This document shows, one piece after another, positions 1 to 54,665 of a stretch of 64,000 bases of DNA (its first letter is position 1; every line of letters begins with the position of its first letter). Below the pieces are notes generated by a model. It was not told the DNA's origin. It saw only the letters and a program-made list of their open reading frames with translations, and ran no database searches. Made by a program: the position numbers and the translations under genes. The stretch is from an uncultured archaeon. Lineage in GTDB: Archaea > Aenigmatarchaeota > Aenigmatarchaeia > QMZP01. Location: contig CAZAEI010000002.1 in the NCBI GenBank assembly GCA_964484305.1, positions 11,715 through 75,714 on the forward strand, in the 5' to 3' direction.

Positions 1-259
1 AACTGGATTGCTGCCATTGTGCTGCTGGCCTGCCTGGCATCGGCTTCCCTGAGCTATAGGCTGTTCCTGAGTAAGGGGCGTGTAAAGAAGAGCATTGAAG
101 GCCTAGAGAGAGAAGAGTAGGGTTAATGAAATTCTCAAGAAGATGCAAAGGGACTACTACCTCGGGAGCCTGGGAAAGTCTCAGTACGATATAATGGTGG
201 AGTCCTGCAAGAAGAGAATCGGTTCTATAGAAAGGGATATCTCCCGCCTTGCCGCATAA
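1..259 (+). pseudogene. 3' end of a gene for a TM-anchored (surface) protein, with the reading frame broken in an AG-repeat. The TM anchor is in frame 1 (1-120) and the homologous cytoplasmic tail is in frame 2 (107-259).
   Basis: Frame 1 reads NWIAAIVLLACLASASLSYRLFLSKGRVKKSIEGLEREE* (a hydrophobic helix followed by a basic stretch). Frame 2 continues REKSRVNEILKKMQRDYYLGSLGKSQYDIMVESCKKRIGSIERDISRLAA*. That tail aligns with the tail of the 1,962-aa protein (LREEKAKTTRMMALLESQYRQKIISREAYESLKNRSEQRLAELDKKI). The frames switch inside tagagagagaagag (about 104-120). Confidence 0.4.
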
Positions 260-309
260 GGCAGCCCTGACAGAAAGGGCCCGCCCGTCTAGGACAGATT
301 CCCGGCAAT

Positions 310-3300
310 CTATGCCCTCAGGGACTCCCTTATCTTCTTGTCAAGCTCGGCCAGCCTCTGCTCGCTCCTGTTCTTGAGGCTCTCATAGGCCTCCCTGGAT
401 ATAATCTTCTGCCTGTACTGACTCTCGAGGAGAGCCATCATCCTGGTTGTCTTGGCCTTCTCCTCCCTGAGCTTCTCGGTCTCCAGGCCGGCGCCCCTTA
501 CTGTCCCTGCAACCTGCCTGGCCTCGGAGAGCCTTCCGCGTAAAATCAGCGAAAGCCTCTTGTTCATCTTTCTGTAGGCAAATACAAGGAATGCTATTAC
601 AGCCAGGACAACCAGGGCGAATATGAGCAGTGTCAGTATCTCAGGTGGCAGCGCGAAACCGGTCAGGAGCTTGTTGAGGAGCTTCTCGGCATTGTCAAGG
701 AGTTCCCAAGCAGCGTAGACAGAGTCAAGGGCAGCGTCATAGAGGTTCTCCCTCAGGTAGCCCTCGGCGAGCTTTATCTCGTTCTCGGCATCGTCTAAGA
801 GGTCGTCAATCTCGCTGGTGTCGAACCCGGCCTCCTGGGCCTGCTCGGCCCTGTTCCTGAGTTCCTCGAGCTTTGCCTTGAGCCTGACGAGCTCGAAGTT
901 TATGAGGTCCTTCTTGGATGTGAATATCCTGAGCAGGAACTCCTCTTCGTCCGTGGACTCGGTGGAGTGGGCAACCACCCTGACTGTCCTCTCTCCTGAC
1001 TCCCCCCTCTCGGGGGTTATCTGGACCGTGATAATCGCGCTCTCTCCGGCCGCCAGGCTGCTTATGTTGGCGGGGTTGGTTATCACCCACTCACCAGGGA
1101 TCCCCTGTAAACCGAGCCATATGTTGTGGAGAGGGCCGCCCACTGCCTCGACCTCTATGTTGAACGGCCTTGGAAGGCCTGCCATAACGCCAATCTCATC
1201 AGGAATCCTGGTTATGTTTATCTTTCCCGAGGGACCGGCCGAGGGTGGGGGGGCTCCCTCACCCTCCCCTCCGCCACCGGGCTCCTCCGGGGGGGCCTCC
1301 CCTGTCACACTGAATCCTGCGCTGGCAGGGGCGGACGGTATGGAGGGGTCATAGAGGACTCTGACCTCCACGGTGTATCCCCCGGGTGGCTGGTGGGAAT
1401 ATATGAACAGGCCGTTTGATGGGCGGAATGTCATCTCCATGCCTGCCCCGATGTTGGGGGTTATCTGGCCGGAGTCCCAGGAGCGGTCAGGGCCCTGTAC
1501 CCAGTAGTCTATAATCACGTCCTCGTTGTCGACCTCGCCCTTGTTCCAGACCGTTATGTTGAAATACATGCTGTTGCCCGGGGCTATCTCCTCCTGGTCA
1601 AGGATGACCTCGACGTCATAGGGCCCTGAGGAGGATATCCTGAAGGCGAGGATGTCATGGGTCTCCTTTTCGCCGAGACTTACCCTCAGGAGGGCAAGGT
1701 ATGTCCCCGTAAGGACGCTGCTCAGAACCTCGGTGAGGGAATAGAAGCCCGCTGCTGTGTGGTTGAAGTCATCTATGTCATACTCCTTCCAGAGGTCGAG
1801 GTTGTATCCCTCGGTTCTGTATATGGTGAGGTTGATGCTATCAGGGTCCGCGGGCTCGTTATAGTTCTGCAGGACAACCACTGATACAGGCATGGCATGG
1901 TCAACCACGCAGGGGCTCGGTATGGCAAGCTTTCCCGTGAGCTCCATGTCTGCGGTCACGTTGAAGGTCACAGCAGTCTCGTTGCCCGTCCAGATATCGA
2001 ACTCCGGGTCGTACCAGGAGCCATTGGAATAAATCGTATACTCCCCCAGGGAGGCGTGGGAGGGTATCACAAAGATGTTGTCAGAGACCCAGCCCGTTTC
2101 ATCGGTCACATACTCCCTGCCCGAGAGCATGTAGACGCTCCTGTTGTCGGGGTCCTTGACAGTGAGGTTTACAGGGGCCCCGGCAAGGGATGCCCCGAGG
2201 TAGTCATGGGCCCGGTAGTTTATGCTCTCCCACCTTCCCTGGGTGGTGTCCGGCATGTCAAGGTAGACCACGTAGCGGGCGTGTGTCTGGAATAGGGAGG
2301 TGTTGGTGGCATTTACATCATAGGTGTCGTTGGCAAAGACATAGACCGTGTAGTTCCCTCTCTGGGTACTGTTGCCGCTGAAGTCGCCCGGATAGGTTAT
2401 CTTGTAGCAGAACATGTCACCGGGGTCATTGATTGCATAGACGCAGCCCGGGGGGAAATCCGGGTCCCTGTGGGAGAACTGCAGCTCGAGTGTGTCGTTG
2501 GTCCCGTCGGGCCTCTCCACGGTCACTATCACGTCGTCAAAATCTGCTCCTGACTGGCTGGTCACGTTGATGTACATTGTCGCGGTATCGGCCTGGGACT
2601 GCATATCAGGGATTATGCCAATCTCGATAAGGGGCTCCACAAAGGGGTTGAGGACAATCTCCAGGGTGATGTTGTCCGGGTCAGCCGATGCCTCTGTGGT
2701 GTTTATGGTATAGTTGGTCAGGAAGAATCCGGAGCCCGCATCCCCGCCCATGTCATAATAGATAGTGAGATTTGTGCTGTTCTGCTTGCTGATGTTGTGG
2801 CTGCTCCAGCCCGGGGTGGTGTGGTTGGCCCCGCCAGGGGGATAGAGCGAGAGGTTGAGCTGTATGTTTCCGGTGTTGCCTATACTAACGTTGCAGACAA
2901 TCCCTGTGTTGGGGCTCTGGGCATGCTCGCAGTGGGTGGGGTAGGCTGTCCAGGAGCCGTTCTCGGGCACGGTTATGTTCAGGTAGAGGCTCTTGTTCCC
3001 GTTGTTGCCTGAGGTGACGTTCAGGGTTCCGTTGTAGCAGCCCGGGTCGAATCCGGGGGGTATGGTCGCGTTTACCTTGACTGTCCTGAAGTCCCCGGGT
3101 GTCATGTTGAAGGGATAGCTCTGGTTGAAGCCCATGGTGAAGTTCTCGAACTCCCCGCTCAGGGTGAAGTTGACGAAGAGCGCGTCGTCGTTGCCTGTGG
3201 AGCGGAGCGTTATGTTGCCGACAAGGATGGAGGTGCCGTGCTCCATGGTCCTGTCAAAGCTGTCCTCAAGGACCTCAAGCGTGACATTGGAGGCCACGCT

Positions 3301-6198: not shown

Positions 6199-6207
6199 TT
6201 ATCACTC

Positions 6208-8034: not shown

Positions 8035-8058
8035 ATCAACACCTCCATATCCTTTCTA

Positions 8059-8076
8059 TCAGTCCCTGAAGGGACT
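8059..8076 (-). promoter_or_regulatory. GC-rich hairpin CAGTCCC-TTCA-GGGACTG (minus-strand reading) in the about 100-nt junction between the giant gene and the coiled-coil gene.
   Basis: A perfect 7-bp inverted repeat is read directly. It lies 13 nt upstream of the SD GGAGGTG of the 8034 start. The stem core GTCCC...GGGAC matches the hairpin family at 53.1, 58.8 and 63.2 kb. Confidence 0.5.
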
Positions 8077-8134
8077 GCGTGCACTCCAGTGCAACAGCTC
8101 CTTAACTTCCTGTTATGCAGCTTTGTCATCTGCA

Positions 8135-47100: not shown

Positions 47101-48460
47101 TGTCGAGCTGTATCGCATCATTGCCATCAGGAGTCTGGTCCTCTGAAGTAGAGCTGTAAAAATGGCCCGGAGGATTGTAGGTTATTCCTGTCTGGCTGTA
47201 TGCATTGCTTTCATTCAGCGCCGTACAGAGATTGTCATAAAGAACCGTCTGCAACGTAACGGGGGCTTCCATCGAGATTAGCGTCTTTGAATACTTGTAG
47301 CCATACTTTCTCACATAGAATTCATGAGGCGTGTAATCAGCTTTCCGTATATCAGTATCTGCATAAACGTGCAATCTCCTGAAATCCAGAATCTGTTCTT
47401 CTATTGTGCCATTAGGATATGTTTCATTGATGCCAACGAGGTTGCCGTAGAGATCTCTCGACATGGCTGTAGCATTTTCTATTTTGCTGCCGTAGAGGTC
47501 ACCCAGTTCTATATTGAATGAACTCTGCCTTAAGACGTATGTGTTGTCAGTGGTTCCGGAACCCTGCAGGTCCATTGTGGTCTCATCAATCACGGAGTCG
47601 ATGGCTATGAGATAATGGTTGTTCAACCCGACATCATAGGTATTGTCATAACCAAAATAGCCCCTCACCGCGCCACTGGAGTGCCAGCATTGTACACCCC
47701 TGTCTGCGTCATGCACCAGAAGATTATTGAACGGGGTTTCTGCCATCCCCATCAGCTCTATGGCGGCAAATCCGTTATAGAACGCGTAGTCATTCACGCT
47801 GGCATTGGAGCCAAAATAAAAAATACCATGATCGGGGTCTTTAGAAGCCGACTGGTAAGTAACTCTATTAACTTCACCATAAGTGTTCAAATCAGCGTAT
47901 GGGCCTGTGTCAATGGCATTAAAATCATCCGCGGTGTCTAAAATAGTTGCTACGGTATCATAGAACTTCAGGGAGTTGTCGGTACTGCTGGCACCTCCGC
48001 AAATGGCACCTGTATGGCCCGTGGTTGCTCCGTTTCCGCAATAGTTTGATGTCAGGTCAAATTCAAGAGAGCTTCCGGACTGGGGCATGCCGGAAGCGGT
48101 AAGCTCACCGAACTGTATTGTACTACCGGTATTTACTTCTATGTATGCATCATCAAGGAGAATGTGCTCGTTGGTGGACTTGAAGTACGTGGGATTGGTG
48201 CCTGACTCGTCGCCTATCTCAAGATTCACGTGGAGTTCGTAATAGTTTTGGCTCCCCGGCCTGGTTATATAGGTATCTGAGCAGGCAAGGTCGATATCAT
48301 AGAACGTACAGGCGTTGGCCTCATCAATTGCATCATCGCACGGGTCACTGCCGCCATCGGCCTCAATCCTGATTGGCGTAGTGCAGTCTATGTCTGCCTT
48401 TACCGTGACCGGGAGGTAGAGTAGAAGGAATATGAGTATCAGGAGGTATTTCTCTTTCAT
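8135..48460 (-). CDS. Giant 13,441-aa single-pass surface protein: signal peptide, tip domain, about 25 three-domain modules, CARDB-like stalk, TM helix and a C-terminal cytoplasmic HerA/FtsK-like ATPase.
   Basis: The reading frame is unbroken over 40.3 kb. SD GGAGGTG lies 5 nt upstream of ATG 48460. That ATG overlaps the TGA of the upstream gene (ACATGA), which suggests translational coupling. The ORF-track start at 48502 adds 14 aa with no SD support. The domain grammar is consistent along the whole length (see sub-features). Confidence 0.9.
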   Translation of the reverse strand: MKEKYLLILIFLLLYLPVTVKADIDCTTPIRIEADGGSDPCDDAIDEANACTFYDIDLACSDTYITRPGSQNYYELHVNLEIGDESGTNPTYFKSTNEHILLDDAYIEVNTGSTIQFGELTASGMPQSGSSLEFDLTSNYCGNGATTGHTGAICGGASSTDNSLKFYDTVATILDTADDFNAIDTGPYADLNTYGEVNRVTYQSASKDPDHGIFYFGSNASVNDYAFYNGFAAIELMGMAETPFNNLLVHDADRGVQCWHSSGAVRGYFGYDNTYDVGLNNHYLIAIDSVIDETTMDLQGSGTTDNTYVLRQSSFNIELGDLYGSKIENATAMSRDLYGNLVGINETYPNGTIEEQILDFRRLHVYADTDIRKADYTPHEFYVRKYGYKYSKTLISMEAPVTLQTVLYDNLCTALNESNAYSQTGITYNPPGHFYSSTSEDQTPDGNDAIQLDNYPVTQSEHLQMLDVTGWSATRFIPSSLIPKANYSVDYETGLVTFDSAYSSTTVRPVYFYGGNITVTDNRTLSNIYDYMQAIQINYSNGENYVTDVFTVSDDCATYTSYVDFIVNDSVVNETSDKKVNNKDGYGFSAGSGNGSLINIQSDTWDFNWKADNGTLFRKYTLDVTVSDSEGAPIENATVQLNDTSGNTIFEINTSADGTITQQAVTYAEYNYTGNVTYSPFRLTVTKYPYNVYSVPVALDRKTEIDVPLSLPCDVDLDYEFEVASGHNVNTNRSADAENLTLEVLVRYATTYNETEDQESGEIQKKAAQESSTYYTMDSSGDEDIISGVSVSGDYTDTQTYDKSFRVINETTSGGAVPAYKDSESDGFDENSAGNDVVITVPASALVGDLMVAIVATDDNTPALTITPPSTETWTLEESGSMPIDGTVASSAPAVWIYTKAVSQDDEDNAGSKTYTWSWTGSEEQLGIILLYENVGDWGQFATNLLTGTRVSIDAPSVTTTTDNELVLHCAFKDGYVIFSGLPSGTSRFNNYCGPANDGAAAFACVEETFINPPNTTGTKTFTLEINEANGYTFSIESSGAGSSVLNVTYIIDDIAAGYEYYYLNVSANSSAATEENFTVYAYSTEVGNITSSETNMTLDVTALISGGELNVTFMDTDQDSDADTDTLGIDLIHVLAYTPLIDDEGVTGWTTYSDVIPELPSQTYNISVIVNVSDYNDTGSTAEGNNDPDLQVQFWNGSDWIDGSVNFSVSGTGNATAWTTDSTVLAAWETPANSDIRIRGIDFDYYDDGNIDEINWTEVWIRMNIGGTVGAGKDVKLYITKVGSGTGATWDSGRTLTTNASGYINYSFFPDCDNASTPLVNEEYEVGAHDWYVIVTTEEDPDLCEDDQSSTWNFNVTGTLQNFIDLPDGSENYTAADTILIQGYTQNYCGEPITLNTTTQVTFNLSNQDESYDTNCTVIDPIGANVYKCNWNPDQETPYGYYNVSMRSDYPNYYENLTIKQPPETFYLTTSPSLTEANATPRQDSWALEHNFSVRIADNLDDTVNVTLQEQILGQSWYDVESRNCTNCSDNAEGYTTFDFNKTYPCSGYAGQWMKFRFRAYDSEGNTIYTDSVTQYYGEDDTFELQKSDVNVTYIYGNETKAQPTQPTEFGVQVYDLDNLSRTFSGYETPLVKFDVTTNGAGSSLVMINSSLTNSSGHANVTFLPDGQFYDGNQTWYGYIGSDDACYRYNKTENLTVEIELNWPPRYENETINGYVGEESTSVSQGWGEGWTFNVTVYDPESDTVDVELQLNTGSGWFKLDNQTCTECSYWETKNFTISLDCGNVSSLAQYRFIITDNESNQNTTTARSFTTEEDDVTYLVIWGHENVTNRSADLLNLSLHVRIMDENGSYAQPNTTMYITKVGTGGGASWDSGHLLTANDTGEVLYDFFPECDNASTPTENEEYEVGLHEWYVKVEDSNTCYKATQSSTYNFTVYGSLYPAIDLPDGSQNFSIGEIVLLQGFIENYCEEPMAVNTSTQISYMLNTTDYGDYCSPISRIGANVYKCNWLPWQEAEYGYYNVTMWANYSYYYENTTISPDIFYLTTSPILKAGNVTPRISSWETEFNFTVNVSDNKGDTVNVTLQYQVVGQGWQDYTTQSCTNCSDNGALNYTQLNWSLTLPCSGYAGSYMKFRFNATDEEGNMKISDPINPGQYVDNDDTFQAEKSDVNVTYVYGNESYTSLTTSTEFGVQVYDLDNLSRTFSGYETPLVKFDVTTNGAGSSLVMINSSLTNSSGHANVTFLPDGQFYDGNQTWYGYIGSDDACYRYNKTENLTVEIELNWPPRYENETINGYVGEESTSVSQGWGEGWTFNVTVYDPESDTVDVELQLNTGSGWFKLDNQTCTECSYWETKNFTISLDCGNVSSLAQYRFIITDNESNQNTTTARSFTTEEDDVTYLVIWGHENVTNRSADLLNLSLHVRIMDENGSYAQPNTTMYITKVGTGGGASWDSGHLLTANDTGEVLYDFFPECDNASTPTENEEYEVGLHEWYVKVEDSNTCYKATQSSTYNFTVYGSLYPAIDLPDGSQNFSIGEIVLLQGFIENYCEEPMAVNTSTQISYMLNTTDYGDYCSPISRIGANVYKCNWLPWQEAEYGYYNVTMWANYSYYYENTTISPDIFYLTTSPILKAGNVTPRSGPWSGNFNFTVNVSDNLGDTVNVTLQYQVVGQGWQDYSTQSCTNCSDNGALNYTELNWTGVTYPCSGYAGQLMKFRFNATDEEGNMKISDPINPGQYVNNDDTFQIQKDNVSIIYISGNNTNSSLSIPAEFIVRLYNNDKQTYDLSPASTVTFNVTTNGEGGDYTTAGTNTTNATGYATFYFLPDDYYITGIQDWIAYVSTTETCYSYNVTDVQKVNTQVHAPLLENENVSMLSGGWGYEWNFSVDVYDEYDNVTVQLWRSTFPVGAPWTLMDEDYYNNSGNWETLNFTPQFTCDNIGLWYYKFNATDEYQNSNTTTPSSYRNFTITQDPVVFEYQQGDDSTANRSGDQTDTLILRIWDGNGTELLDFNVTFYVETNSYEYDSGINITTNSSGHAVYDFNASCTPTRYEVGVQNWKAETDGYRCYADNSSTEYDLTVMGDFNVSFDWPLEENKTVGDRIRFEASIWDDCQAELGGATVRFNASGLTEDECSAVTSPVTGYYKCSETPQGLDTTGYRQGWYNATLNATKDYYYMNETVKTNMSNGGFFYLYIYPLLEDPAVVPTSEGWSRKFNFSVNVTDDPLDNVTVQLWHSSSGGTGGEWLQLDGDLYCEDCNDTVLNWTDINFSCSYKGTVNFKFNASDIDVKTDSEESSFTVEADDVIVEYGGSGNDTEINRSADTITLSTKVNDTDANEYVPSGVYGRLWVTTDGSAYSDLGLITTDADGFFNETFPPGGDECDYDVGIQKWKMQTSDTCYASQNSSEHYVAVYGDLYADIIQPTGLQQFSESETVPIVLKGNLTDDCSQGVSNAEVNFRLDGPMTYWCPESGYVTNLTGSIYQCDWNSSGKAGGDYNITMFAYKSYHNNDTDLEEDAFHLSVPIQILNEMAIPDTPDDAPWGRNYTFSVNVTHINDVYLCLWERPAGLSFTEVECRNVTVPTGKTELFYHQYSVSDYDTSATREWKFNASERDTGASPQTTSTHTLTLTPDNLTMGTLYDEDGKPEVFVEAPSHMVEDLGNCPSGRYQHIIVFNDEEDPVNVTGMVFFEGDPSETTSMMETGATFSVHSYSESAAPDYANRDSGDLYWYEWGWSNGTIGVTIQPGEYHVFWAQVTPLGEQSFPYRPIGSGYYNSTVYLGDGQAVGSGNYDMGMLPDHGGALHFRLDLEQGDSLLSDEDSDYCSSPYNWFTRENRTANRSDILDVLIPVWLEAENSGRGEILSFSTNVTFPRGWNYILGTAKVNGRGVQKITHYLINGVDRLVWTFDGDDPSWIDQYKDNQSMGQAYLTFQVKSACPYEGAYVWEINATNIQQEDYDENHTDYVNLTTFCFAPNREDTPKNTQVERQGSATTPLFVDVFDIILGEYADSSTTEQVFYNVTTDGSVYTNQHQGGEMKVLTTDSAPHMYANFSFNPGCSPFYQAGVQNWFAYTKSDAYDYHKDNVNSSSIYNVTIIGQLEPNITIPYGDYLKGETINITVDVVGDCNEDITTATINVTLKSQDTLNTYECTNVTNWGGGSYSCYWNSSVIGFDYANYTIYANASDVAYYNNGTDIETDAFSVNPPVSKINVTAMYVPDEIFQNRSFVVNATVTVTEKASEQVNATLEVPLDWQVLPSRTQNLSAMGIDDSKDVGWEVYVNSSYEVSYVINVSVNNTEEQEDRNITTVLAYRFLDLGCPASAIHYNTSGDSEDDVTTQFCSVDVTLGASLDDSSLEADLTAGQEPEESVEAAWPCEGGDYRIGNLTAYWEGSSGPSRARVYAYNGTDWFNVLHSQDIGDNAEEQPVSIMQNQIAPNGTGYCIIRIENAGGNGLMLDALFLQLYYRPSVSVIDIKPAIAGDETSGMEKGDGNLNVTVRVQNTLNASYTVNITLNITNSSGGVIYSQTQTDVPLDKGTTVYENFTEIDTSSWGSGTKYLNAFVDYNSSQAKRREQFEFRNVSFSVLGPDYMCPSTTEELNVTVSHLFADRVYYNISVSVPAGWTVSPQYQEANLTSTSSFYFNLTSSGSPTGSSLVNTTVSYTYPDSYAKSIEHEKTIINDYVPILEVTRESPASLSNYTDFDVRLFVHNKGCVPAYDVRLNETTPYGWTVYDASINLGGTLNGQIISWDLGEIGVNFYKNPSYTIKAHFLEDQVGPFYWNSTWKDNVSSSYQANQTLYFRVRTKWEEHMRFELNTSSFEGRSAELNATTNYTLIIENVGEASSAGDWNATLYIPPSCTPDYLGGGSWDSGNRTISWNVSSDLAQGQTQKFNFSMNCTETGPLVLLAAAISDQRGEASYYNSTNYNCSGRSCFSQNTHTFQNPGMPYESLSELDFLINYTRTGSNMTIGESIVNMTGDTGYVIPVWQNFTFNESSGELWVNRTVTDDESSEFNNQQHQIGVYSHSDATMQADGSIIIKQISYSWKYGKKFNEQEGLFLKVKPIHYPLLENPDVNPYSVGWGEGHNFTVDVYDSGDNVTVYLWEAFSASGPWTLKDSQLYSSPGSWATLNFTEHHNCSEVGTKYYKFNATDEFGYSNETSSGSFYIDYDDLVITEIQGDGSVANRSGSQIDTLILYLQDENGSFIYDVNITFYVTTSGFNWDDGTNEPTNDTGYATYDFDAKCSSPKYEVGSHQWKGEVTGQSCYNDKVSSLYDMTIMGDLNVTLLDPSNTNYTEGDTVTFYGYLTNDCDDLLQGYPLEFRPWHDTYIEYLDAENLPGGYYRYYWSTLGGKPGGWYNITINATELTQDTYYSDQKDYIYPNVTEPIHAFYLEIAPRLREANVTPRQDGWSYQRNFTVNASDEAEDTLTAYAWQRESTGEWEQITPSRQCTSCDNATMNWSASYTCSDLTGETATMYFKFNATDGTLSYTTSVASGDYVGDDNSFILERQDVILEHSYGDETAVNRTGPGSATPLILNVTDTDRNQVAYPPAATVVFNITTDAGPGFLLEGSNTTNDTGEVTYYFNPNCSYHVGKQYWQGFTQDGCYKTNQSGTFNVTVIGNIVLSASAENSTYHQEENITVWINVTDDCGTFISVSFLNVTLRYNESIAYNCTNLYEWNTGNYSCNWSTTKQDVTGYYDIVMEASNPPNYNNGTKEEIHDFMLISYENNNPMLSNENVIPEGWGTLTNFSVDVEDPDFDNVTVWLWEGDSGSGPFTLIDSQTCWDCEPGETLNFSTYHNCQDAQAPKYYKFNASDAQGGTDSTPTNQFQVEPDNVTVYVREGSLAQVNRSLDQLSTVVIIQVYDSDNLTYVGQDVNTSLFVAYSGTSYDSGLTNTTNSSGHARFYFNPNCSYTVGDRNWIAGTYGDQCYDDETNSPPQTMRIYGDLVINFTNISCPGGFCFDGDNVTIRANLSDECGTLLNESNAIINVTHDTYNSECDVNDEGDGYYNCTREVAGTPGGWYAVHARVDRGFHNPEYIVNSTGFFHQIGPYLYAEQVTPSNVPWGNNPAKSTFTFNINVSDDDDNITLRLYMTKTPPDWGLPKDSQSVQDYLNQTVTLSEQFTACADVGTWYWKINVSDTSDLNDTTSGSDTVEVTNVNVTFSILQGNDSVVQRYGSNKTLLHVRVINNYTGGVEGMPGNTGYFWVTTTTGGEFSQNHQDGLMTNTTKNDGNLTMYFNPGCSGPHYWAGPQEWKAGVTFSSCYNNANSSEFNVNITGILTPNITYPIGVIPFLKGDPVPIWGDVEDDCGPISGIDVDFSIDNFWTPPAPNDWANGSYNTTWDSTEGSIGRHDVNMTVTNESYDVNQDWEEDALILVVKPQLRNPFTDVGIGGADGWGHNFTFKVEYCDQDGEDTVNISLWVSSSTLGPWTFIDSTDVSGCTWSNVTFHHNFSCQDYLENIQYFRFVANDTYNYSNETQSQLFHLQRDNVSLYSYYTSASQVSREGDETIFFSIFVNDTDRGGDVGAGVNGSFWVSINSTTGLLDSGHPRETNISGALNYTFNATCDYPTGSQYWFSGALDDQCYDDENDTTQHYFDILGQLKLSLDQPPNMSEFNVTDDILMNWTVFGDCESNISGVTNTVEIYQPLNDSYCSGWNEEPNGVYNCTWNSTSQPEGNWTINITAERGTYNSNETSWLYRFWLENRDPVSSQATADPMSGGWGATYMYNITIDDPEADETVCTLYTNTTGSGWVERGYDVVQWTGNCTILVSDFISDDMGPTQFRFRINDTFNLYETDNLTGPALSEDNVTVTFIHGNHTGGSEGSVQRSGQDYTNLIVNVYDEDRGNYPQGVNVTFWITYSGTSKDSGNTTTTDSSGNATDSFDPGCGPKYGVGNQTWLAGITDSSYINKNTTDNYTVYITGSLTNQVQIPNGTEHLRGTNVTVRANVTDDCQDVITGAGVTYQMRNVSLYECVYKSEEGSGWYNCSFNTSDMEPMGYNLTVNSSKTDHASESLTLEYVETETSFWVETEPCMSGVVAIPWVGGWSETFNFTVNVTDEDYDQVIVYGYFRTEEPAQGSWNPLGAGSDSGSGINWTAFFQHQFGPGYVSTILSVMFNATEDDEWWFNTTPVNFTVEEDDVNYTHTQGNETTVNRVGNDNKTLIIYVWDQDDPAHPPASTNNPEGRFWITTNASDPGSWDSGTSRQVNDTGYIKYEFNPDGSCTYGVGKQLWKVGLTTSSQYYKESNSSETWNITITSEFTPDLITPLNKSFRKGIDPVLLSANLTDLASGCGLVSDANVSFYIHRSGYSDYYCQAAETSNPGIYNCTIPAAETNNPGWVYGWYNMTINASREFYANISETFNDTFYIGSDPVLSITGTGVTPFSEGWGRTFNFTVDVYDLDGNNVTVRLYKKLFSESDYTHLQTKECAPCSSDQYNPTVMTFVVDTFTCSDIGSSNFKFNATDTHDFTDESDIKSFTVQKDSVNYQARTQNNTDTVRQGTDTILISYYVYDTDRGNLALPADVNGTVYVTSNEWDWGNPLYNQTNDTGHLNYYLDTNCSHKFGYHIFSTRIENDDCYNPDSEMFWPGNRTFNVYGQLLNNIDLPAYQEPFNVTDPVPVRLNTTSDCSLDRPDEAIINNSYITIQVISPYGIWHDCTPVENETDPTQGYYNCTWDSTDHREGWWSIQLNSSRAYFNDNRTHLQDWFQLENLNSTWSQQQVVPQADGWTRPFNFSVNITDPDSDTVNCSLYINRYDGQGWVFRGNMTLHDPSGVVGQTCWVELRDFTGDDIGENTYMFYIQNGEPSNYFNTTNYTGPTLEVANTSIAFITPNGTTVNMTGDTELLTVLVNDTDNYTLQNWFPPGVNVTFWVTYNDSSLNVTLNQTNQTGHANYLFEPDCSFSIGPQEWWANVTDSHYEMNTTGHNLTIYIYEELAIQVEQPLGIEYLNGTNVTFRFNITEYSCGRNVTGVDLSRLNITAIHEDTGQNFTCDYKSEEGQGWYNCSMNTSGLPAQEYTVMIIAGKDYYNDVNETHEYAESTSGFFVESEPVLTEPTMNSTDYDGDTGANGSYMEPRNLSVRVTDPDGDNVNVYFYRRMWTGSGWDDWTEIGMSWCSSCNNSLVYYYDSYVYSYEYHLGTWQYKANCSDQANYPRSGGVSYSDEVGPFNYTVEKNDINITVYDGDGAWLWRNGSAYYVLSTKVKNVDDNFQELAGGEANGTVYITKDHANLENVTDPGNPPKNTNYGFFNYSFHPDGDDDATSNCEYDIGVQKWRVFVHNNQRYKDENSSLLNITLRTFLNGTIHSPIDLAPYVQEAGINITFNFSLFDECLDPVAGANEKNITLDGPANYFITNSTIDDEGDGHYTHNRSASDTAQTPPNYNTTAQAWKQYYEMVTLYANDSFTVGTRPQLQYINPIVDPSVDGWGYQSGFSFFAQCKDADNDVMNVTLWKRATPNDEWGLLDYNSCQGTNWQNDATFTITTFDCGDISPSGWHSQFKINATDEDGYGVELGPQNFTVQSDNVTVIQKQGYGVDVYRNGSGGPGVELFQVLINDTDAGNVPVPQGVNGTFWITSTGSDFDTEWTNTTNGQGYLNLYFNPNCFYKFGAQQWIGGVWNDQCYDVENSTSQAFNVYGQLLNNIDLPAYQEPFNVTDPVPVRLNTTSDCSLDRPDEAIINNSYITIQVISPYGIWHDCTPVENETDPTQGYYNCTWDSTDHREGWWSIQLNSSRAYFNDNRTHLQDWFQLENLNSTWSQQQVVPQADGWTRPFNFSVNITDPDSDTVNCSLYINRYDGQGWVFRGNMTLHDPSGVVGQTCWVELRDFTGDDIGENTYMFYIQNGEPSNYFNTTNYTGPTLEVANTSIAFITPNGTTVNMTGDTELLTVLVNDTDNYTLQNWFPPGVNVTFWVTYNDSSLNVTLNQTNQTGHANYLFEPDCSFSIGPQEWWANVTDSHYEMNTTGHNLTLIIMDELLNNITYPDYTQFNKGVNITLNATIQDSCGSNVSDASVYFIIESELYGDKYYCNDTQTLGDGQYSCEFNSSGMKAGWYDVTMASNRTYYNTNHSYDYHTFSVETAPVLVFAGYGVDPAGGGWGESFNYSVNVSDEDGDTVRVYAYERKYGDASWGSPLIAPNGEDPYQECQPCDNTTLTFTIDNFDCANGLGDNLTRVREFKFNATDDPPGPDDTDEIGPRNYTMTKNDASIEYVQGNDSWVYRPSGTITLQLRIYDLVKQQYANIPNERSIVNITNMTGNWISSPVNQSNPQGYITYEFDPGCSPKYDTGPQLWRGYIEGTPSNPGCYAENVSDNFTVNIWTSPLNYTLTIPDGEHYRRSLDNITIRGRVYDECAGEIGGVNNATVTFEAISPACNFECSDDTGNDGGGIEDEFESGGTRGWYNCTFWGPDNTSNWAGTCLNVYNTTLYATKNFYNSSSALVDNESFVLTQVPSIRWWTNPHTIDPIGGGWGAKHTFHYYFEDDEGASDSVNITLWKSVGVDNWTLINYTIRNNPNEQLFTFVHTFNCGEQGTNYYLINVTDKWNDTNETTTENWDMGKDRVYTYAGASDDEVDREGQETAYLNVYFSDLDKGYTNVVAGVDGKIWVTFNGSDTGTWDDGHANQTSGDGYMRIWFDPSCDPLYEVGSHDWKGGIELDECYENYAGNSSSTTLTVYGRLNSTIDTPQQGNSSTVGDMLYSRYNVTDDCSQLVNETTTTIEFKHPTSSWDSHTPADEGDGWYNYDLDTSFHKGGWYDVRINASKTYYRPDNSSFWDDWFYLENTPPAISEVNVTPGEGPWGGVYTYSVKIWDTQQDNVTCELWVSTDGGSSYYKKNWTTIWGGRDYCNLTVGDALDGTEFNCSDMGTDNSFHFMIDDETNVNYTDNITGPNLTADTAMITYSFGNESVIDRDDSSSNHLATYTVYTNDTVRVGHVLTGTDITFWTTYNNSVFDGGNLNQTNTSGHALLYFNPGCSGPKYEVGPQEWKAGITDSCYAAVNTSQNYTLEIWGSLYGDIEEPGQDEEYERGVENISTKGLVEDDCGDTKTGVNVTFNFTHVDDSDVYPCLYYTIEGTIYYRCKRNTTGMKARWYNNTMYSSMAYHYSNATTWESHFEVVTKPVLTQETALTNPGGWGERFHFSVNLTDEDYDEVEVKLYAKKQSDSLWGVPKNSTIADTAVGEIINLSWRDDPIDCGNIDDWEFYFKATDNRSPPFTNETGPGNFTIERDNAYMLLEQGHEAYIWRNGSDNYQLIMRVWDNDTNNYAETGTIGATNATFWVTTNHSLDTWDVGKYEFDNGSAYILYDFMDEVPQPECDYKVGPHYWKAGVGGLKEDVCYKPINSTEYTVYLNSTLIMTIHEPHGQGILWGTPLDVVGYIEDDCNPVENSTVQWVFSRKTTQWPENQDQANQSQGWYNYTWTETYKRTDWYNITMDADKEYYGPNQTLREDAFFIALAPDIQDAGIDKELGGWGENFYVWVVITDADSNYNNITLWKRQWNDSQGDWDEWLLINQTWEYDLGDDEVHFDQHFACADMGWNQFRFNSKDEFNFTDDSNKTVTDDSLQLKNTSWSEAPIHDASGQADSGFNHTETTDEAGFFETFNITIHNQNGTVMYFNLSVNGVQVADNQSVQDGQNATVDAISGGASFTLPGGQDINFTVTDGQGGSGEANYTTYLNQSMLYQSFSTSHYIDAFYDVERFNVTLQNENGSTLYFDLEVNGITVAQNLSVAPGENASYDARRQGGLDFTPPGSQQISIAVTNGSGGNASARFSLYLHYIAGVHEFYLQEDNVTVYLCDGTDCLPASNTTVRRVGAQNAFLNIRIEDTDAAFDKYPDGVDTGFWITEDYENFTVFYDCTTTGAGYCDVNHNPGCATPAGIQKWKLETLDSCYQPLNSSTKNLQVFGQLYANYTTPVDGDVLNRNLTYTLNATVNDDCGTYINYSTLTWQNESWDLINTTDNGSLGFYDRSWYIGESYELGPDILRINTTKTHHDKGTNQTDILIYGWAGIDTMWPPNGTEFDAGAMNTWITCHVSDINTGQSIESYNVDFYKNGVYNASDDTDWQGNATWYWYTEWEDAGPYNISCKISDDDVLYYNVSAGERMSNITVNRQLIIDEITKSYGTIYRNDSYDPHETEICVHVNDAQIGNASGANVSFYNNSGFIRNCTTDQWGRCNITYNVTDNIAPGNYTIHINATKAGISDSDTVETYLDVIGVLILNITSPVDESKHPKTGTVDLDVNITDEAGSVISGCDVEWWNETGMLTDMQTYPNYPLTGQEAGNRTITSNATKQYYAAGNNSVLITIEAVVDVYYVSPANYTLLPYPVPFDVFCQVRYAEAAGGGPVEDYDVELYYYWESAGLPWVFINNFTTNPSGYINHTFDPGQKGNLNFKCNITDNTSRLIQAGISEAQGIITIRDVNLPVITNTSIVPDTSIEANLNYTNITANVTDDVGINKVWADILLPNQTHENVTMTNESLGGDLYRVSYVPVLSGLYHVWIWAQDTGPEYNNASLYAGTFDVWGKITGLIELNKTILMSGITQSHGAQFNLSVNFTNLGPPTGYYVELRSMDDPNDTLVINDTYQDIGNLSVNETYTWPLTVDVPAGTPPMLIRVMIYANWTDPDLTLNSTLNWSDVFVSSNPILDIVEDELTNTVPHESTLYYVGNFTVYSSGNDAVDDIDITMVGGNLSSECPECVVDIIPAAWGRLEAGYQFSSSLYIDIPAGQPPGDYWTVVRASASNTEPDDMILTVNVPENTSWTRTPGSLSSYENPILALLNASAAIGNITTTNIGNSRIAIKVYRTENGSDMVLADPEYFELGKQVSRNTTISYIVPVAKPKGMYYVKLILRNETADPQEWITDLWLNVTDTPPLIDDVNATPLVFEAGYENVSISANITDNFEVSDAWIRVVRPTDCGYINESKMIHSATSDSGFNYTEQVNSLYDASMLYFNITIENNNGTEISLNLAVNSLLVADNISIPSGQSATIDAVAGGASFTLPGYQHINMTMDGNASYDARLNYSVLDVSAYTEQMNGTAKPFYHATYNSSLEGYHDLYICANDTAGLSGCTSMIQLYGAGTTHLIMTTNVSEVNITGITLSDSEDFDFNLTVMPDWARLFNLSVTLGLPGSWSAAPDTFNFSDMLKHETKSNESRVTVATSTWPGNYTVNLTANWTELNGYTNGTNLTSILVMVQPNPAIDILESTLPYFVRSGGTGNKTMNIYSIGNVNATNITYSCIWGEVCENFTVGFNPLNISVLEPGQGQLVNITITVPPLYKAGEYAGTVEALEAGGSNDTVFIVLTVPINLSWYHDPEDITINLSHETSGNMGYITVHNTGNARLILEVIQSGNGTPYIPLDKDELDLDIASSDTIMVNYTLPHIDDITTYQSLIRTENLSAGEPTYQETWVTVNAFPFSLDLTHPTQAEPTKNVTASDAIQVEVNVTYGGEPLNHSVEFNLTLFNATGSWHLNITSANYSNYTGLWHLNFSAPNISENKGYDLNVSALYVNASIWLHDIEMKAVIYIDRVAPEVAIEVPPRVPANSTAYIYINATDSGGVERAELEVTFPDNSTMDFNATFVEKLGDLYRFVVAMNYTSQVGIYHVNATAWDLSGNWNYSDKSFEIFPGVMWSGDSVNMEKLHKPHFHLNFTFLLAGTSYEAYNFTTEGATGHYNETLDMRAYDINITFRNETVILYDSELVYDVYNPVLFGKIPGVKMPQKSLKGYYIYTQPVNYSYASLELDCEECYIEGECELSDFMLQNLGIYQCDDWVPMEGCQGTWVAIASTVNSTFYSIAANMSSLNGAFVLAEWICGDDVCESAKGESNAGCPGDCPIVIPEVPKPEEGGGGGGGGAAAEAVTVSGPIEVKTTLIYVTLSQGEYEIHSMEIINNRAGSITANFTVEGLIWDMVQIESPSISISGRSVGVSKIKLYTLPTTQPGVYTGDIITNVEGFGITHRTPVTIKVEKIPSPLLDVQVKSLTKSVAPNEEFRYEVTLVNMGETATIEDIIVQYTIKNLNTDEIMTIFKETVAVEQSLTFRRNITIPSDTPYDRYVIEANVTYWHGNKFAFAADAFDVTELPPVIAALRAIFWNWLTYVILFFVVPAAYGGRYGYRYIKLKKKKKTRYIFPMDFKKLPQAGPNAFVVGKVAETDMLAYFDMTQLQTHGISAGSTGAGKTVSSMIVVEEMLKRNIPVIVFDPTCQWTGFLRPCRDQRMLKLYPRFGLKPGDARRYKGRITRITDPNTAIDIRNYMNPGEITVVLIDKMEPAQLDIFVRKTIADMFKIPWPESPKIKLFIVYDEVHRLLPKYGGKGGYVALERGCREFRKWGIGLWLISQVLMDFKGAIRANISTEVQMRTKYTGDIRRVTQKYGFQYASTTTKLRTGTGMVQNAEFNHGKPYFIEFRPLLHDTGRLSDKDIDEYIRYDTEVTSLMQKAKELKARGIDTTDIEFELKLARDKISQTMFTMSKTYIDSVKNRIRKLGG
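8681..8707 (-). other. Walker B motif LFIVYDEVH (hhhhDE).
   Basis: A hydrophobic strand ending in D-E, 116 aa after the Walker A motif. Confidence 0.8.
9056..9079 (-). other. Walker A motif GSTGAGKT.
   Basis: The minus strand reads ggc tcc acg ggc gcg ggc aag acg. Confidence 0.9.
9260..9322 (-). other. The single C-terminal transmembrane helix of the giant protein (IFWNWLTYVILFFVVPAAYGG).
   Basis: This is the only long hydrophobic segment after the signal peptide. It is followed by RYGYRYIKLKKKKKTRY, which places the C-terminus in the cytoplasm by the positive-inside rule. Confidence 0.8.
21632..22636 (-). repeat. Exact intragenic duplicate, copy 1 (1,005 bp, 335 aa), offset 3,105 bp from copy 2.
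   Basis: Identical to 24737-25741. Duplicated shadow ORFs confirm this (22029=25134, 22106=25211, 22204=25309). The first mismatches are at 21631/24736 and 22637/25742. Confidence 0.9.
24737..25741 (-). repeat. Exact intragenic duplicate, copy 2 (partner of 21632-22636).
   Basis: The protein block NVYGQLLNNIDLPAYQEPFNVTD...EMNTTGHNLT occurs twice verbatim. Confidence 0.9.
40596..41893 (-). repeat. Exact intragenic duplicate, copy 1 (about 1,298 bp, 432 aa), offset 1,734 bp from copy 2.
   Basis: Base-for-base identical to 42330-43627 when the two stretches are read side by side. Duplicated shadow ORFs confirm this (40933=42667, 40962=42696, 41099=42833). The flanks are similar but diverged. 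Coordinates are good to within 1-2 nt. Confidence 0.85.
42330..43627 (-). repeat. Exact intragenic duplicate, copy 2 (partner of 40596-41893).
   Basis: As for copy 1. The protein block GVQVYDLDNLSRTFSGYETPLVKF...ILKAGNVTPR occurs twice verbatim. Confidence 0.85.
48395..48460 (-). other. Sec-type signal peptide of the giant protein (MKEKYLLILIFLLLYLPVTVKA|DIDC).
   Basis: A basic N-terminus, a hydrophobic core and a V-K-A small-residue cleavage motif. Confidence 0.7.
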
Positions 48461-49710
48461 GTTCGCACCTCCAGCTTCTGGCACAGGGAGGCGTCCGCGC
48501 ACTCGTAGGCAACATCCTCCCTTTCAAGGGCATGCATAACGACTGCGTTTTCCGGGAGCCTGAGTGTTGTGGTCGGGACCGGTGCCTGAACGTCAAGGGT
48601 CTGGAGCTGGCCCCTGCTGAGCATCTCTGTGCCAACCCCCCTGGTTGCCTGAACTTCAGGTGTCTGGGGCTGTTCATTGCTGATTCTCTGTATATCGAAC
48701 CTCCAGCCGTCAAAAACAGAATCATCGTGCAGGTAGATGTTGTTCTCTGATGTGCTGAACACCTTGTACTTGGTCTCGTACATGGCCAGCCTGCCGCCTG
48801 CGTTGACCTTGATGGCCGAGCTGTGGTCGAGCTGGTCCTGCTCGGAAACGTTGACGTCAATCATCGGCCCGCCGTAGCCGTAACCGCCCTGCTCATCGGT
48901 GAACAGGCCGAACTGGAGGCCTGCGAGCGGCATGACCTCCCAGGGCTTCAGGATATTGATGTGCTCAAAGCTTGACACGAACCATGTCTCGTTCAGGCCG
49001 TCCCCTATCATCAGGCCGGAATGTACGATGAAGAAGCTGCCGTAATTCTCGATTCTGCTCCAGTTGTTCTCCTTGTCGGTGTCATAGATGTCGGAGAGCG
49101 TGCAGGGGTTTTCTGTGGTGCAGCGTTCATTGTTTCCGACTATCGTTATTGTGTCAGTTTCCGGGTCGTATGATATCCCGCTTGGGGTTTGGTAAACCTC
49201 ATCCCCGGATGGGATGACCTCTATGCCTGCCTGCTCCTGGGAGGGGTTCAGGAAACCCCTGCCGTTGAAGGCAACCGAGAGAGTGTGGATTCCTGAAAGG
49301 TCAGTGAGATGAATGTTTAGGGTGGCGTGGCCTGAGGTGTCTGTTAATTTTGACCCAATCAAATTGCCATCAAGGTAGAACTCCGTTTCAGCATCAGGAA
49401 GGGTATCGCCGTTATCCAGAAAGAGTGTGACGGGAAGGTCCAGGGTTTCGTTGTCATAGAAAACAGTTCTTTCGAGGGGGAGTTCGATTGCGGTGTTTGC
49501 CCGGATTTCTATGGTTCCGGCTGCCTCTATCGTTATAGTCTGAGAAGAAGGTTGGGTTATGTTCTCGAATTCTCCACCGGAGAGGTTGGCCAGGAAGTCG
49601 CCTGTGAGATTGGTGATGTTGGTGGCGTTCTGGGCAATCACCACCCCAGAGACCAGGAGCAGAAAAATGGCCCCTATCAGCACCTCTGACTGTGCAAGGC
49701 TGCTCTTCAT
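48457..49710 (-). CDS. Secreted protein of about 417 aa with a signal peptide, an Ig-like domain and a paralogue of the giant protein's N-terminal tip domain.
   Basis: MKSSLAQSEVLIGAIFLLLVSGVVIA|QNATNITN. The ATG at 49710 is preferred over the TTG at 49737 used by the ORF track. Its stop overlaps the giant gene's start (ATGA). CTTENPCTLSDIYD...LMIGDG..ETWFVSSFEHI...LQFGLFT aligns with CTTP...CTFYDIDL...LEIGDE..PTYFKSTNEHI...IQFGELT in the giant protein. Confidence 0.8.
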   Translation of the reverse strand: MKSSLAQSEVLIGAIFLLLVSGVVIAQNATNITNLTGDFLANLSGGEFENITQPSSQTITIEAAGTIEIRANTAIELPLERTVFYDNETLDLPVTLFLDNGDTLPDAETEFYLDGNLIGSKLTDTSGHATLNIHLTDLSGIHTLSVAFNGRGFLNPSQEQAGIEVIPSGDEVYQTPSGISYDPETDTITIVGNNERCTTENPCTLSDIYDTDKENNWSRIENYGSFFIVHSGLMIGDGLNETWFVSSFEHINILKPWEVMPLAGLQFGLFTDEQGGYGYGGPMIDVNVSEQDQLDHSSAIKVNAGGRLAMYETKYKVFSTSENNIYLHDDSVFDGWRFDIQRISNEQPQTPEVQATRGVGTEMLSRGQLQTLDVQAPVPTTTLRLPENAVVMHALEREDVAYECADASLCQKLEVRT

Positions 49711-49729
49711 CCCGTGCCTGTCTCTCTGG

Positions 49730-50413
49730 CTATTCAAAATACCTCACCAAAAGCTTTATTTCTCGCTCCCCTAGCTTGGAGGAAAGGGAAGCGGCAACCG
49801 TAAGTTCGCTTGTGCAGGTGGCTCCGGCAGGCACATCGCAATAATGGCTGCCGCTTCCCGCAAGAATGGAAATGCCATCCGGAAGAACCCATTCTATCTC
49901 CACATCATGGGCGTCAGTGTCTCCACGATTGGATATCTCGGCTGATAGAAGGAAGGGCTCGTTTCGGTTGGCCCTCCCGGGCATGTGTGGGCTGGTCTCG
50001 ATAACAGGGCCTGTGGCTTCTGGTTCCTGTTGTTCCTGGCCTGGTTGCTCCTGGGTCTGGTTCTGTCCTGATGTCTGGTTGGTGGGTTCTGGAAGGGTCT
50101 GGTTATCAGGAAGGGTGACGTTGGTTTCATCAAGCAGGAGTGTGATGTTTATTGTGATGTTTTCCTCTGGGAGGGTCAGGTTGGTTTCATTTATTGGAGC
50201 GCCCTCCCCTGTTTCTGATTCATTGAAGAAGACTGGCGTGTTGTTTTCTTTTGCAGGAAGGGTTGTGTTCTCTGTGATGTTTTCAGGGGACGTACTGGTT
50301 ATGTTGGCGGTCATGCCGCCGGTTATGTTGTCAGTGGCGTTCTGGGCCACAATCATTGTTGTCGGTATCAGGAGTAGAAAGAGGGCTGCGGCTAGGATTT
50401 GTGCCTGACCCAT
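49730..50413 (-). CDS. Small secreted protein of about 227 aa with a signal peptide, an N/T/E/Q-rich sequon-laden linker and a C-terminal CARDB-like domain.
   Basis: MGQAQILAAALFLLLIPTTMIVA|QNATDNIT; the leader is paralogous to that of the next gene. The C-terminus NEPFLLSAEISNRGDTDAHDVEIEWVLPDG is CARDB-like. The ATG at 50413 is preferred over 50464. No clear SD is present, and it is the first gene downstream of an AT-rich promoter gap. Confidence 0.7.
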   Translation of the reverse strand: MGQAQILAAALFLLLIPTTMIVAQNATDNITGGMTANITSTSPENITENTTLPAKENNTPVFFNESETGEGAPINETNLTLPEENITINITLLLDETNVTLPDNQTLPEPTNQTSGQNQTQEQPGQEQQEPEATGPVIETSPHMPGRANRNEPFLLSAEISNRGDTDAHDVEIEWVLPDGISILAGSGSHYCDVPAGATCTSELTVAASLSSKLGEREIKLLVRYFE

Positions 50414-53129: not shown

Positions 53130-53134
53130 ATCAC

Positions 53135-54661: not shown

Positions 54662-54665
54662 AAAA

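Follow-up and report, generated by a model that had tools for sequence, protein, structure and literature searches.

What kind of surface system needs a protein of 13,441 amino acids (aa) with an ATPase at its inner end? The question is raised by 64,000 nucleotides (nt) of contig CAZAEI010000002.1 (GCA_964484305.1), from an uncultured archaeon of the Aenigmatarchaeota, which belong to DPANN. We refer to this whole stretch as the window, and all coordinates count from its start. Five open reading frames (ORFs) lie on its minus strand between 310 and 50413, and the third of them is the giant. An earlier reading of the DNA (the original prediction) proposed that the five genes encode an undescribed cell-surface apparatus. 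Our answer is that the giant is, by homology, a member of the SPEARE family, and that the locus is probably a SPEARE-type system in which attachment to a host is coupled to polymer translocation by a HerA-like motor in the membrane. The matter is of some consequence, as SPEARE proteins are a leading candidate for the means by which DPANN archaea tell their hosts apart from other cells, keep hold of them, and draw on them.

The giant protein and its ATPase

The giant consists of a signal peptide, an ectodomain of Ig-like (immunoglobulin-like) and NEW3 modules that is rich in glycosylation sequons, a single transmembrane segment, and a cytoplasmic ATPase (Table 1). It has 730 N-X-S/T sequons, where 201 are expected from its composition, and 728 of these precede the transmembrane segment; the last 441 residues contain only 2. 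The ectodomain is about 13,000 aa long, and internal repeats span 66% of the protein (self-BLAST with 200-aa fragments). We searched 97% of the giant against Pfam (the first 1,500 and last 1,499 residues at E ≤ 0.01, and the middle 10,000 at E ≤ 0.001). The matches in the ectodomain were weak and all of Ig-like types (NEW3/NPCBM_assoc, Big_7, Big_1, and CarboxypepD_reg), with just two in the middle 10,000 aa. Across the same 97%, no Laminin_G, WD40, serine-protease, or toxin-like domain was reported by Pfam, for which the modules are too divergent. Its final 461 aa are made up of an Ig strand pair, the transmembrane helix, the P-loop ATPase, and a helical hairpin, and the AlphaFold2 (AF2) model of this C-terminal module has a predicted local distance difference test score (pLDDT) of 81.

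Several kinds of evidence place the ATPase next to HerA. In Pfam, it matches PF01935 (DUF87; 27.4 bits, cut-off 23.2) and PF05872 (HerA_C; 23.9 bits, cut-off 22). Its best match in a profile search of the Protein Data Bank (PDB) is HerA (4d2i, E 2e-11). When the AF2 model was compared to known structures with Foldseek, the top matches were SIR2-HerA, Sulfolobus HerA, and HerA-NurA, followed by TcpA (rank 8), VirB4 (rank 23), and FtsK. So both its sequence and its predicted fold are nearest to HerA, and judging by its motifs the domain should be catalytically intact: the Walker A and B residues are invariant in alignment A1. It has the P-loop, the Walker motifs, and the conserved Arg/Gln motifs of the HerA/FtsK superfamily (HerA, SIR2-HerA, FtsK/SpoIIIE, TcpA/TraD, and Ced), and it has in common with FtsK, the coupling proteins, and Ced that a cytoplasmic ring ATPase is anchored in the membrane. 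Nevertheless, it is a HerA-like domain and not a HerA helicase. There is no HAS-barrel: what comes before the ATPase is a transmembrane helix with Ig domains (alignment A1 and AF2), and NurA, the partner of HerA, was not found with Pfam or NCBIfam among the cluster proteins and the three neighbouring genes that were scanned. The gamma domain of FtsK and the other parts of type IV secretion systems (T4SS) or of Ced are absent here as well, and scores against every named ATPase family in NCBIfam are far under the family cut-offs. Compared with these ATPases, it is unique in being fused to a giant ectodomain.

SPEARE proteins were described from Nanohaloarchaeota by Hamm et al. 2019 (PMC6642349), who saw the protein of Ca. 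Nanohaloarchaeum antarcticus by proteomics, reported short versions of 655-717 aa, and pointed out that Aenigmarchaeota, Woesearchaeota, Micrarchaeota, and Altiarchaeales have proteins related to the intracellular region. By BLASTP, the C-terminal 391 aa of our giant, with the transmembrane segment and the ATPase, are 38% identical to the Nha. antarcticus protein (E 3e-99; sequence from the supplementary information of PMC6642349). The giant also has the family's features: a homologous intracellular P-loop region, a long extracytoplasmic part with a transmembrane segment close to the C-terminus, and a DPANN archaeon as its encoder. Like the SPEARE proteins of Nanohaloarchaeota and of lineage EX4484-52, it begins with a signal peptide, is built mostly of extracytoplasmic adhesion or Ig modules, and ends in a coiled-coil after the ATPase. 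Because the architecture matches and the homology is direct, we assign the giant to the SPEARE family.

The published proteins have multiple adhesion domains, including at least one laminin-G; the giant has Ig-like Pfam matches only, its modules being too divergent for Pfam. The further domains of the 2019 description were not detected in it with Pfam or NCBIfam. Since Reva et al. 2023 (PMC10266531) dispute those further domains in any SPEARE protein, their absence does not exclude membership. The giant is also longer than any of the published examples that we found (5,998; 8,553; 9,409; and 12,127 aa, the last being a SPEARE-like protein reported for EX4484-52; PMC8470020). The SPEARE architecture thus reaches the Aenigmatarchaeota, and the central protein of the supposedly undescribed apparatus is instead a very large addition to a described family. 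The original prediction held that homologues in an already characterised system would count against it. Homologues do exist in SPEARE, but that family has been described rather than characterised mechanistically.

How widespread is this ATPase module? In a library of representatives at 50% identity it forms a compact family of 365 clusters at E ≤ 1e-30. The closest relatives come from metagenome-assembled genomes (MAGs) of Aenigmatarchaeota, and the relatives overall are overwhelmingly from Aenigmatarchaeota and other DPANN MAGs. Most of the listed family proteins have the module at or near the C-terminus, and the longest of those listed has 7,665 aa. A few genomes encode short ATPase versions of about 725 aa, which have the membrane-proximal base module of the giant, and short versions of about 650-730 aa are found in both the published data and ours.

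The cytoplasmic domain of SPEARE proteins has been labelled in the literature as a restriction enzyme and as VirB4/TraG (the latter in PMC10266531); our sequence and predicted-fold comparisons place it closest to HerA. This bears on a close rival to our interpretation. In the re-annotation by Reva et al. 2023 (PMC10266531), the cytoplasmic part became a VirB4/TraG-like ATPase with a coiled-coil, and the authors proposed, for the nanohaloarchaeal proteins, a T4SS-like "straw": the giant would be a conduit through which effectors are injected into the host. TcpA and VirB4 are indeed among the significant Foldseek matches, there is a weak NCBIfam match to TraD (19.5 bits against a cut-off of 366), and coupling proteins, too, are laid out with a transmembrane anchor ahead of a cytoplasmic ATPase. 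We still consider the straw unlikely for this locus. HerA outranks VirB4 and the coupling proteins by sequence and by fold, and scans of the cluster proteins with Pfam and NCBIfam found neither the VirB4 N-terminal domain (PF03135) nor any other T4SS component. Furthermore, one transmembrane helix per chain and a fibre of Ig modules offer no obvious channel, and the second, downstream VirB4-like ATPase of nanohaloarchaea is absent here.

Partners of the giant across DPANN

Which of the neighbouring genes accompany the giant elsewhere? We collected 80 species-representative genome loci of the ATPase module. We scored the coiled-coil gene (608 aa in the window) in the 65 loci with at least 2.5 kb of flanking sequence, and we compared the coiled-coil, glycoprotein, and MinD-like genes in the 50 loci with at least 9 kb. 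The coiled-coil gene was on the same strand and just downstream of the ATPase module in 61 of the 65 loci. With the longer flanks, it was present in 47 of 50, a glycoprotein of about 1,950 aa (1,962 aa in the window) in 35, and a MinD/ParA-like ATPase in 24. A reverse search of metagenome contigs, which began from the N-terminus of the glycoprotein, found the coiled-coil gene upstream in 45 of 61 cases and the SPEARE ATPase upstream in 36 of 47. The original prediction had suggested checking whether the five families co-occur. The giant, coiled-coil, and glycoprotein genes do, being adjacent and co-directional in most species-level DPANN loci, but conservation does not extend to all five genes as a set. 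What recurs widely is a core of three, namely the giant, for which a short ATPase version may stand in, plus the coiled-coil protein and the glycoprotein, and the MinD-like ATPase often accompanies them; the 227-aa and 417-aa genes upstream of the giant are limited to close relatives. In the window, the MinD/ParA-like gene is only a candidate for an associated component, but its relatives elsewhere (33-46% identical) come directly after the coiled-coil or the glycoprotein gene. None of the papers that we could search describes the partner genes or the motif that two of them share. The coiled-coil and glycoprotein partners and their motif are apparently new.

Some loci have additional genes between the coiled-coil and glycoprotein genes (L019:12862-14713, L036:13574-14708, L042:13270-14521, and similar). 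These encode helical proteins of about 100 aa with the shared motif, a membrane protein of about 155 aa with an HExxH sequence that is possibly a metalloprotease, and a transmembrane-anchored small GTPase of about 220 aa. Also, two MAGs (L037/L072 and L050/L084) each contain both a giant and a short ATPase version of about 725 aa, each with its own coiled-coil gene, and the coiled-coil genes beside short versions are missing the N-terminal copy of the motif.

The 608-aa protein has no hydrophobic segment and only two sequons, so we expect it to be cytoplasmic. Its family has no relative in Pfam, NCBIfam, or the PDB beyond generic coiled coil (in the PDB, GCN4). Its three copies of a helical motif of about 35 aa follow the pattern L-x2-L-E-E-x-[YF]-x2-G-x-I-[ST]-x3-Y-x3-K, with a conserved extension N-x3-L-x2-I. 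Copies 1 and 2 match each other with an hhalign probability of 98.5%. Copy 2 matches the motif in the cytoplasmic tail of the glycoprotein (probability 97.5%, E 2e-11), and the motif is conserved across both families. The original prediction had called these motifs SHOCT-like. That the 608-aa protein and the glycoprotein tail have a motif in common stands, but the SHOCT identity is not supported: the Pfam model PF09851 matched none of nine motif-bearing sequences (five motif segments at E ≤ 10 and four small motif proteins of related loci at E ≤ 1). The likeness to the SHOCT consensus is one seen by eye. What the two do have in common is a position at protein ends and on the cytoplasmic tails of membrane proteins, although here the motif is also internal and N-terminal and has the extension.

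Pfam also reported weak nucleoporin-like matches (Nup49_C and Nsp1_C) on motif-bearing sequences. A similar annotation is described for the CCPs, a set of DPANN-specific coiled-coil proteins, cytoplasmic or on the surface, that are linked to type IV pilus loci and for which a role in host interaction has been proposed (Hamm et al. 2023 preprint, 10.1101/2023.02.24.529834). We compared these by description. What defines a CCP is that its gene lies next to CpaF, TadC, and pilin genes, whereas there is no pilus gene in this window.

The 1,962-aa glycoprotein starts with a leader and contains 106 sequons; towards its C-terminus is a strong transmembrane segment, followed by a tail of about 90 aa. 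As predicted, it has stalk modules in common with the giant: its residues 519-1230 match residues 11394-12330 of the giant with E values of 6e-18 to 4e-11. Full-length homologues downstream of the coiled-coil gene are 29-46% identical to it, and the family varies little in length (28 of the 31 complete copies have 1,908-2,103 aa). A PDB profile search with the N-terminal region found nothing. Its WWNxSWHYR...FYxYFD sequence recalls the DUF2341/LamG-like domains of other surface proteins; Pfam reported no such match.

Could the glycoprotein instead be part of the cell envelope? It would then be an anchor for an S-layer or sheath and the giant a surface polymer, and the ATPase and the coiled-coil protein would take part in assembling or maintaining the envelope. 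The glycoprotein does look like an S-layer protein in its signal peptide, its many sequons, and its C-terminal anchor. Its unusually constant length and the conservation of its N-terminal region across lineages also agree with this idea. We think it improbable, as Pfam and NCBIfam found no archaeal S-layer model (such as TIGR01564 or TIGR01567) on the protein. Also, the known DPANN S-layer proteins are different: they are about 1,000 aa long, one has archaeal S-layer domains, and both are among the top-expressed genes, whereas the glycoprotein gene is the last in a cluster of about 50 kb and is separated by 9 nt from the gene before it. We therefore rejected the glycoprotein as an S-layer protein.

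Upstream of the giant are the two genes that are specific to close relatives. Both products have leaders and no membrane anchor, and published SPEARE loci differ in that such secreted paralogues of fibre parts are a feature of this one. The 227-aa protein has a signal peptide, a sequon-rich linker, and a C-terminal Ig domain of NEW3/CARDB type (Pfam NPCBM_assoc, E 5.7e-5, 23.7 bits, just under the cut-off). In the 417-aa protein, a signal peptide is followed by an Ig/FN3-like domain (about aa 89-165) and then, at about aa 198-346, by a domain that is paralogous to the N-terminal "tip" of the giant. The original prediction proposed that the two leaders are paralogous and that the tip domain is present in both the small protein and the giant. 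The leaders are 32% identical over 111 aa (E 6e-9), and the tips match by BLASTP (37% over 76 aa, E 2e-5) and by hhalign (probability 93%, E 3e-7, 144 columns). The AF2 model of the 417-aa protein has a pLDDT of 64 overall and 80-93 in its two domains, and is confident for aa 179-345. Among 5.8 billion clusters the protein has only 11 homologues, of which the closest are from Aenigmatarchaeota MAGs. Relatives at 77% and 48% identity have retained the order of a 227-aa-like gene, a 417-aa-like gene, and the giant, those at 48% in genomic surroundings that differ. The 227-aa homologue is in the same position in L089, L090, and L091, and the tip domain is kept at the giant's N-terminus in L089 and L091.

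How the system might work

The topology fits an extracellular fibre with a coiled-coil scaffold and an ATPase inside the cell, as originally proposed, and the distribution of sequons and hydrophobic segments is consistent with this. We envisage the following. The ATPase domains would oligomerise beneath the membrane, probably as hexamers like other HerA/FtsK ATPases, and the giant ectodomains would thereby be gathered into a long, glycosylated fibre. The coiled-coil protein would bridge the ATPase ring and the tails of the glycoprotein by means of the shared motif, which would give a single membrane complex, and the MinD-like ATPase may position it. The tip of the fibre, with the lineage-specific secreted tip and NEW3 paralogues, would recognise the host surface. 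At the site of contact, the motor would drive a polymer across the symbiont's membrane. The likeliest substrate would be the host's DNA or another nucleic acid. Membrane-anchored members of the superfamily (FtsK/SpoIIIE, the coupling proteins, and Ced) move DNA. For this reason, and because of the weak matches to such proteins here, we favour nucleic-acid translocation.

More speculatively, DPANN archaea may have in common one conserved trans-envelope machine for latching on to hosts and taking up macromolecules, consisting of SPEARE together with the coiled-coil protein and the ~1,950-aa glycoprotein, in many cases joined by the MinD-like ATPase. The repeated motif would link the ring of HerA-like motors both to a coiled-coil scaffold and to a second surface protein, the latter by its tails, and MinD would position the whole. 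We offer this tentatively and would not be surprised if it were wrong; if true, it would be a new class of archaeal cell-cell transport system and more than a large adhesin. Other giant adhesins (halomucin of Haloquadratum and the SiiE type) are likewise extracellular, built of repeats, and several thousand residues long, and the giant here has many sequons. But they have neither a cytoplasmic ATPase nor conserved coiled-coil and glycoprotein partners, and they are secreted or are anchored in other ways (for example, by retention in a type I secretion system). In any case, a vague "giant adhesin" becomes a defined multi-protein module, whose partner genes appear unreported, with specific interactions to consider: motif with motif, and scaffold with ATPase.

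Several points weigh against our interpretation. First, we infer how the ATPase oligomerises, which contacts the motif makes, and what the motor moves, and the same is true of positioning by MinD and of host recognition by the tip and the secreted paralogues. Second, the nearest solved relatives of the ATPase are soluble HerA helicases, and neither NurA nor a DNA-binding partner is present. The NCBIfam match to CedD is weak, being confined to the Walker region and scoring 24.6 bits against a cut-off of 600. Third, binding of the host by the tip is an assumption, because the tip domain has no recognisable fold match: Foldseek searches of the PDB and BFVD matched only the adjoining Ig domain. 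Fourth, about a quarter of the glycoprotein loci have no detectable ATPase or coiled-coil gene upstream. Nor is the partner set universal, since in cultivated nanohaloarchaea the gene downstream of SPEARE encodes a VirB4/TraG-like ATPase (Reva et al. 2023, PMC10266531) and not the coiled-coil protein that is followed here by the glycoprotein. Finally, the exact length of the giant is uncertain, owing to two repeats of about 1 kb that are perfect or nearly so.

Those repeats raise the question of whether the 40-kb ORF is partly mis-assembled or chimeric, so that neither its length nor its status as a single gene could be relied upon. The two direct repeats suggest recent duplication, gene conversion, or smoothing by the assembler, and most of the public contigs shown break within the giant gene (all 8 of those shown that bear the 608-aa gene, and 3 of the 4 shown for the 417-aa gene). 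Yet a stop-free frame of 40,326 nt is beyond chance, and independent assemblies agree with it. A contig from the Joint Genome Institute (JGI), L085, is collinear with the window over 21 kb that include the first repeat pair (99.58% identity, no gaps); L089 and L090, relatives with 81% identity, have the 1,734-nt duplication too; and three more contigs (L086-L088) are 99.97-100% identical over 8-10 kb. The cluster proteins are found on contigs of 97.6 and 103.2 kb as well, and dozens of species have ORFs of at least 3,784 aa that end in the same module. We consider an artefact very improbable: the perfect repeats and the contig ends leave the exact length open, while the existence of the gene is not in doubt. 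The fusion of giant ectodomain and ATPase is real. In all but three of the loci with a full flank, the ATPase-bearing ORF exceeds the 10 kb of upstream sequence (at least 3,784 aa). In the close relatives L001 and L003 the ATPase is split from the giant, but we ruled this out as evidence against the fusion because the splits coincide with 10-N scaffold gaps in the poly-Gly linker.

One related gene does have an interruption. The 77%-identical SPEARE homologue at L002:323-1780 and upstream of it (jgi 3300009034, Ga0115863_1004635) has an in-frame TAG ("GDIIT*IGNY") at about nt 179-181. The codon comes after the Ig base module and before the transmembrane segment, and past it the homology carries on without a change of frame. 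A sequencing error, a pseudogene, or read-through could each account for it.

Lastly, the locus could encode HerA-based anti-phage defence (like SIR2-HerA) or belong to a mobile or conjugative element, as the closest solved structures include SIR2-HerA and DUF4297-HerA complexes and there are weak PADLOC matches to HerA, but we give this almost no credence: the PADLOC matches are generic (at most 34 bits), the cluster has no SIR2, DUF4297, or nuclease effector, the ATPase is fused to a glycosylated ectodomain of ~13,000 aa, the window showed neither an integrase nor any other gene of a mobile element, and the locus lies among housekeeping genes with the same arrangement in 77%-identical relatives.

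The cluster and its surroundings

The order, strand, and coordinates of the five co-directional genes are as first reported (Table 1). The junctions are tight, measuring, in gene order, 19 nt, -4 nt (the ATG of the giant overlaps the TGA of the 417-aa gene, in ATGA), 100 nt, and 9 nt. The 100-nt spacer contains a hairpin, after which there is no T-run. Strong Shine-Dalgarno sequences precede the three downstream starts: GGAGGTG for the giant and the 608-aa gene, and GGAGTG for the 1,962-aa gene. The ORF listing also offers an earlier start for the giant, a GTG at 48502. Scans of the cluster proteins with Pfam and NCBIfam found no pilin, archaellin, secretin, NurA, or secretion-system marker, again in agreement with the original prediction.

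Table 1. Positions of the cluster genes, their parts, and adjacent features in the 64,000-nt window
Feature	Position	Strand	Basis or remark
MinD/ParA-like ATPase, 248 aa (candidate associated component)	51936..52682	-	Pfam CbiA and ParA; two genes upstream of cluster
227-aa secreted glycoprotein	49730..50413	-	ORF and hydrophobic leader; first gene of cluster
417-aa secreted protein	48457..49710	-	ORF; stop overlaps ATG of giant
Giant SPEARE-type gene, 13,441 aa from ATG	8135..48460	-	Unbroken ORF
Giant, signal peptide (MKEKYLLILIFLLLYLPVTVKA)	48395..48460	-	Hydrophobic N-terminal segment
Giant, N-terminal tip domain, aa 46-208	47837..48325	-	Paralogous to aa 198-346 of 417-aa protein
Giant, tandem duplication, unit 1,734 nt	40727..43460	-	42461-43460 and 40727-41726 100% identical (blastn self-comparison)
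Giant, second duplication, offset 3,105 nt	21632..25749	-	24737-25749 vs 21632-22643, 99.3-100% (blastn self-comparison)
Giant, membrane-proximal base module	9353..10150	-	Cys-rich segment, poly-Gly/Ala linker 10013-10150, two Ig-like domains 9353-10012 (alignment A1)
Giant, transmembrane segment, aa 13043-13071	9248..9334	-	Conserved hydrophobic block in A1; long helix in AF2 (model residues 59-102); sequons end here
Giant, HerA/FtsK-superfamily P-loop ATPase, cytoplasmic	8360..9205	-	Walker A 9056-9079, Walker B 8681-8707
Giant, C-terminal helical hairpin (coiled-coil)	8138..8347	-	AF2 helices 393-418, 424-438, 442-459
7-bp hairpin CAGTCCC-TTCA-GGGACTG	8060..8077	-	In spacer between giant and 608-aa gene
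608-aa cytoplasmic coiled-coil protein	6208..8034	-	ORF without transmembrane segment
608-aa protein, helical motif (~35 aa), three copies	7882-7995, 6676-6789, 6274-6351	-	Alignment A2
608-aa protein, conserved coiled-coil core	6871-7494	-	Alignment A2; protein also has Pro/Ala/Glu/Lys-rich linkers
1,962-aa type I membrane glycoprotein	310..6198	-	ORF, signal peptide, C-terminal transmembrane segment
1,962-aa protein, conserved N-terminal region	~4699-6108	-	Family alignment; N-terminal 500 aa well conserved
1,962-aa protein, NEW3 domain	3355-3558	-	Pfam
1,962-aa protein, transmembrane segment	574-639	-	Hydrophobicity
1,962-aa protein, cytoplasmic-tail copy of shared motif	331-450	-	Profile-profile match to coiled-coil motif
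Convergent remnant	1..259	+	End of transmembrane-bearing ORF (stop 118-120) and 38-aa ORF, +1 frame, ATG 143 to 259

At the left edge of the window, the original prediction described a convergent partial gene that bears the helical motif. The motif is there, but the remnant is not one frame: the motif lies in the 38-aa ORF, in the +1 frame beyond a TAG, and adjoins an AG-rich run. The gene calls on four public contigs of this population (L093, L095, L096, and L098) have the same split into 73 and 38 aa, so random sequencing error is probably not the cause.

The neighbours of the cluster are archaeal housekeeping genes: a trio for acetoacetyl-CoA thiolase, 3-hydroxy-3-methylglutaryl-CoA (HMG-CoA) synthase, and DUF35, the MinD-like ATPase, a carbamoyltransferase, and a family 2 glycosyltransferase (GT2). 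A tRNA scan found no tRNA in the window, and an Rfam scan found no Rfam family. The trio (52713-55703, minus strand) is of the archaeal type and suggests that this organism has at least the entry steps of the mevalonate pathway. Its group is often said to be without lipid biosynthesis.

Beyond the window's left edge, the contigs L092-L096 (from about 50 nt to 10 kb past it; for example, L092:17915-21827) have a second surface-protein locus, which is convergent with the cluster and abuts it. It encodes a 258-aa KaiC/GvpD-like ATPase, a GT2 fragment, and a 1,466-aa surface protein with Laminin_G_3 and NEW3 domains.

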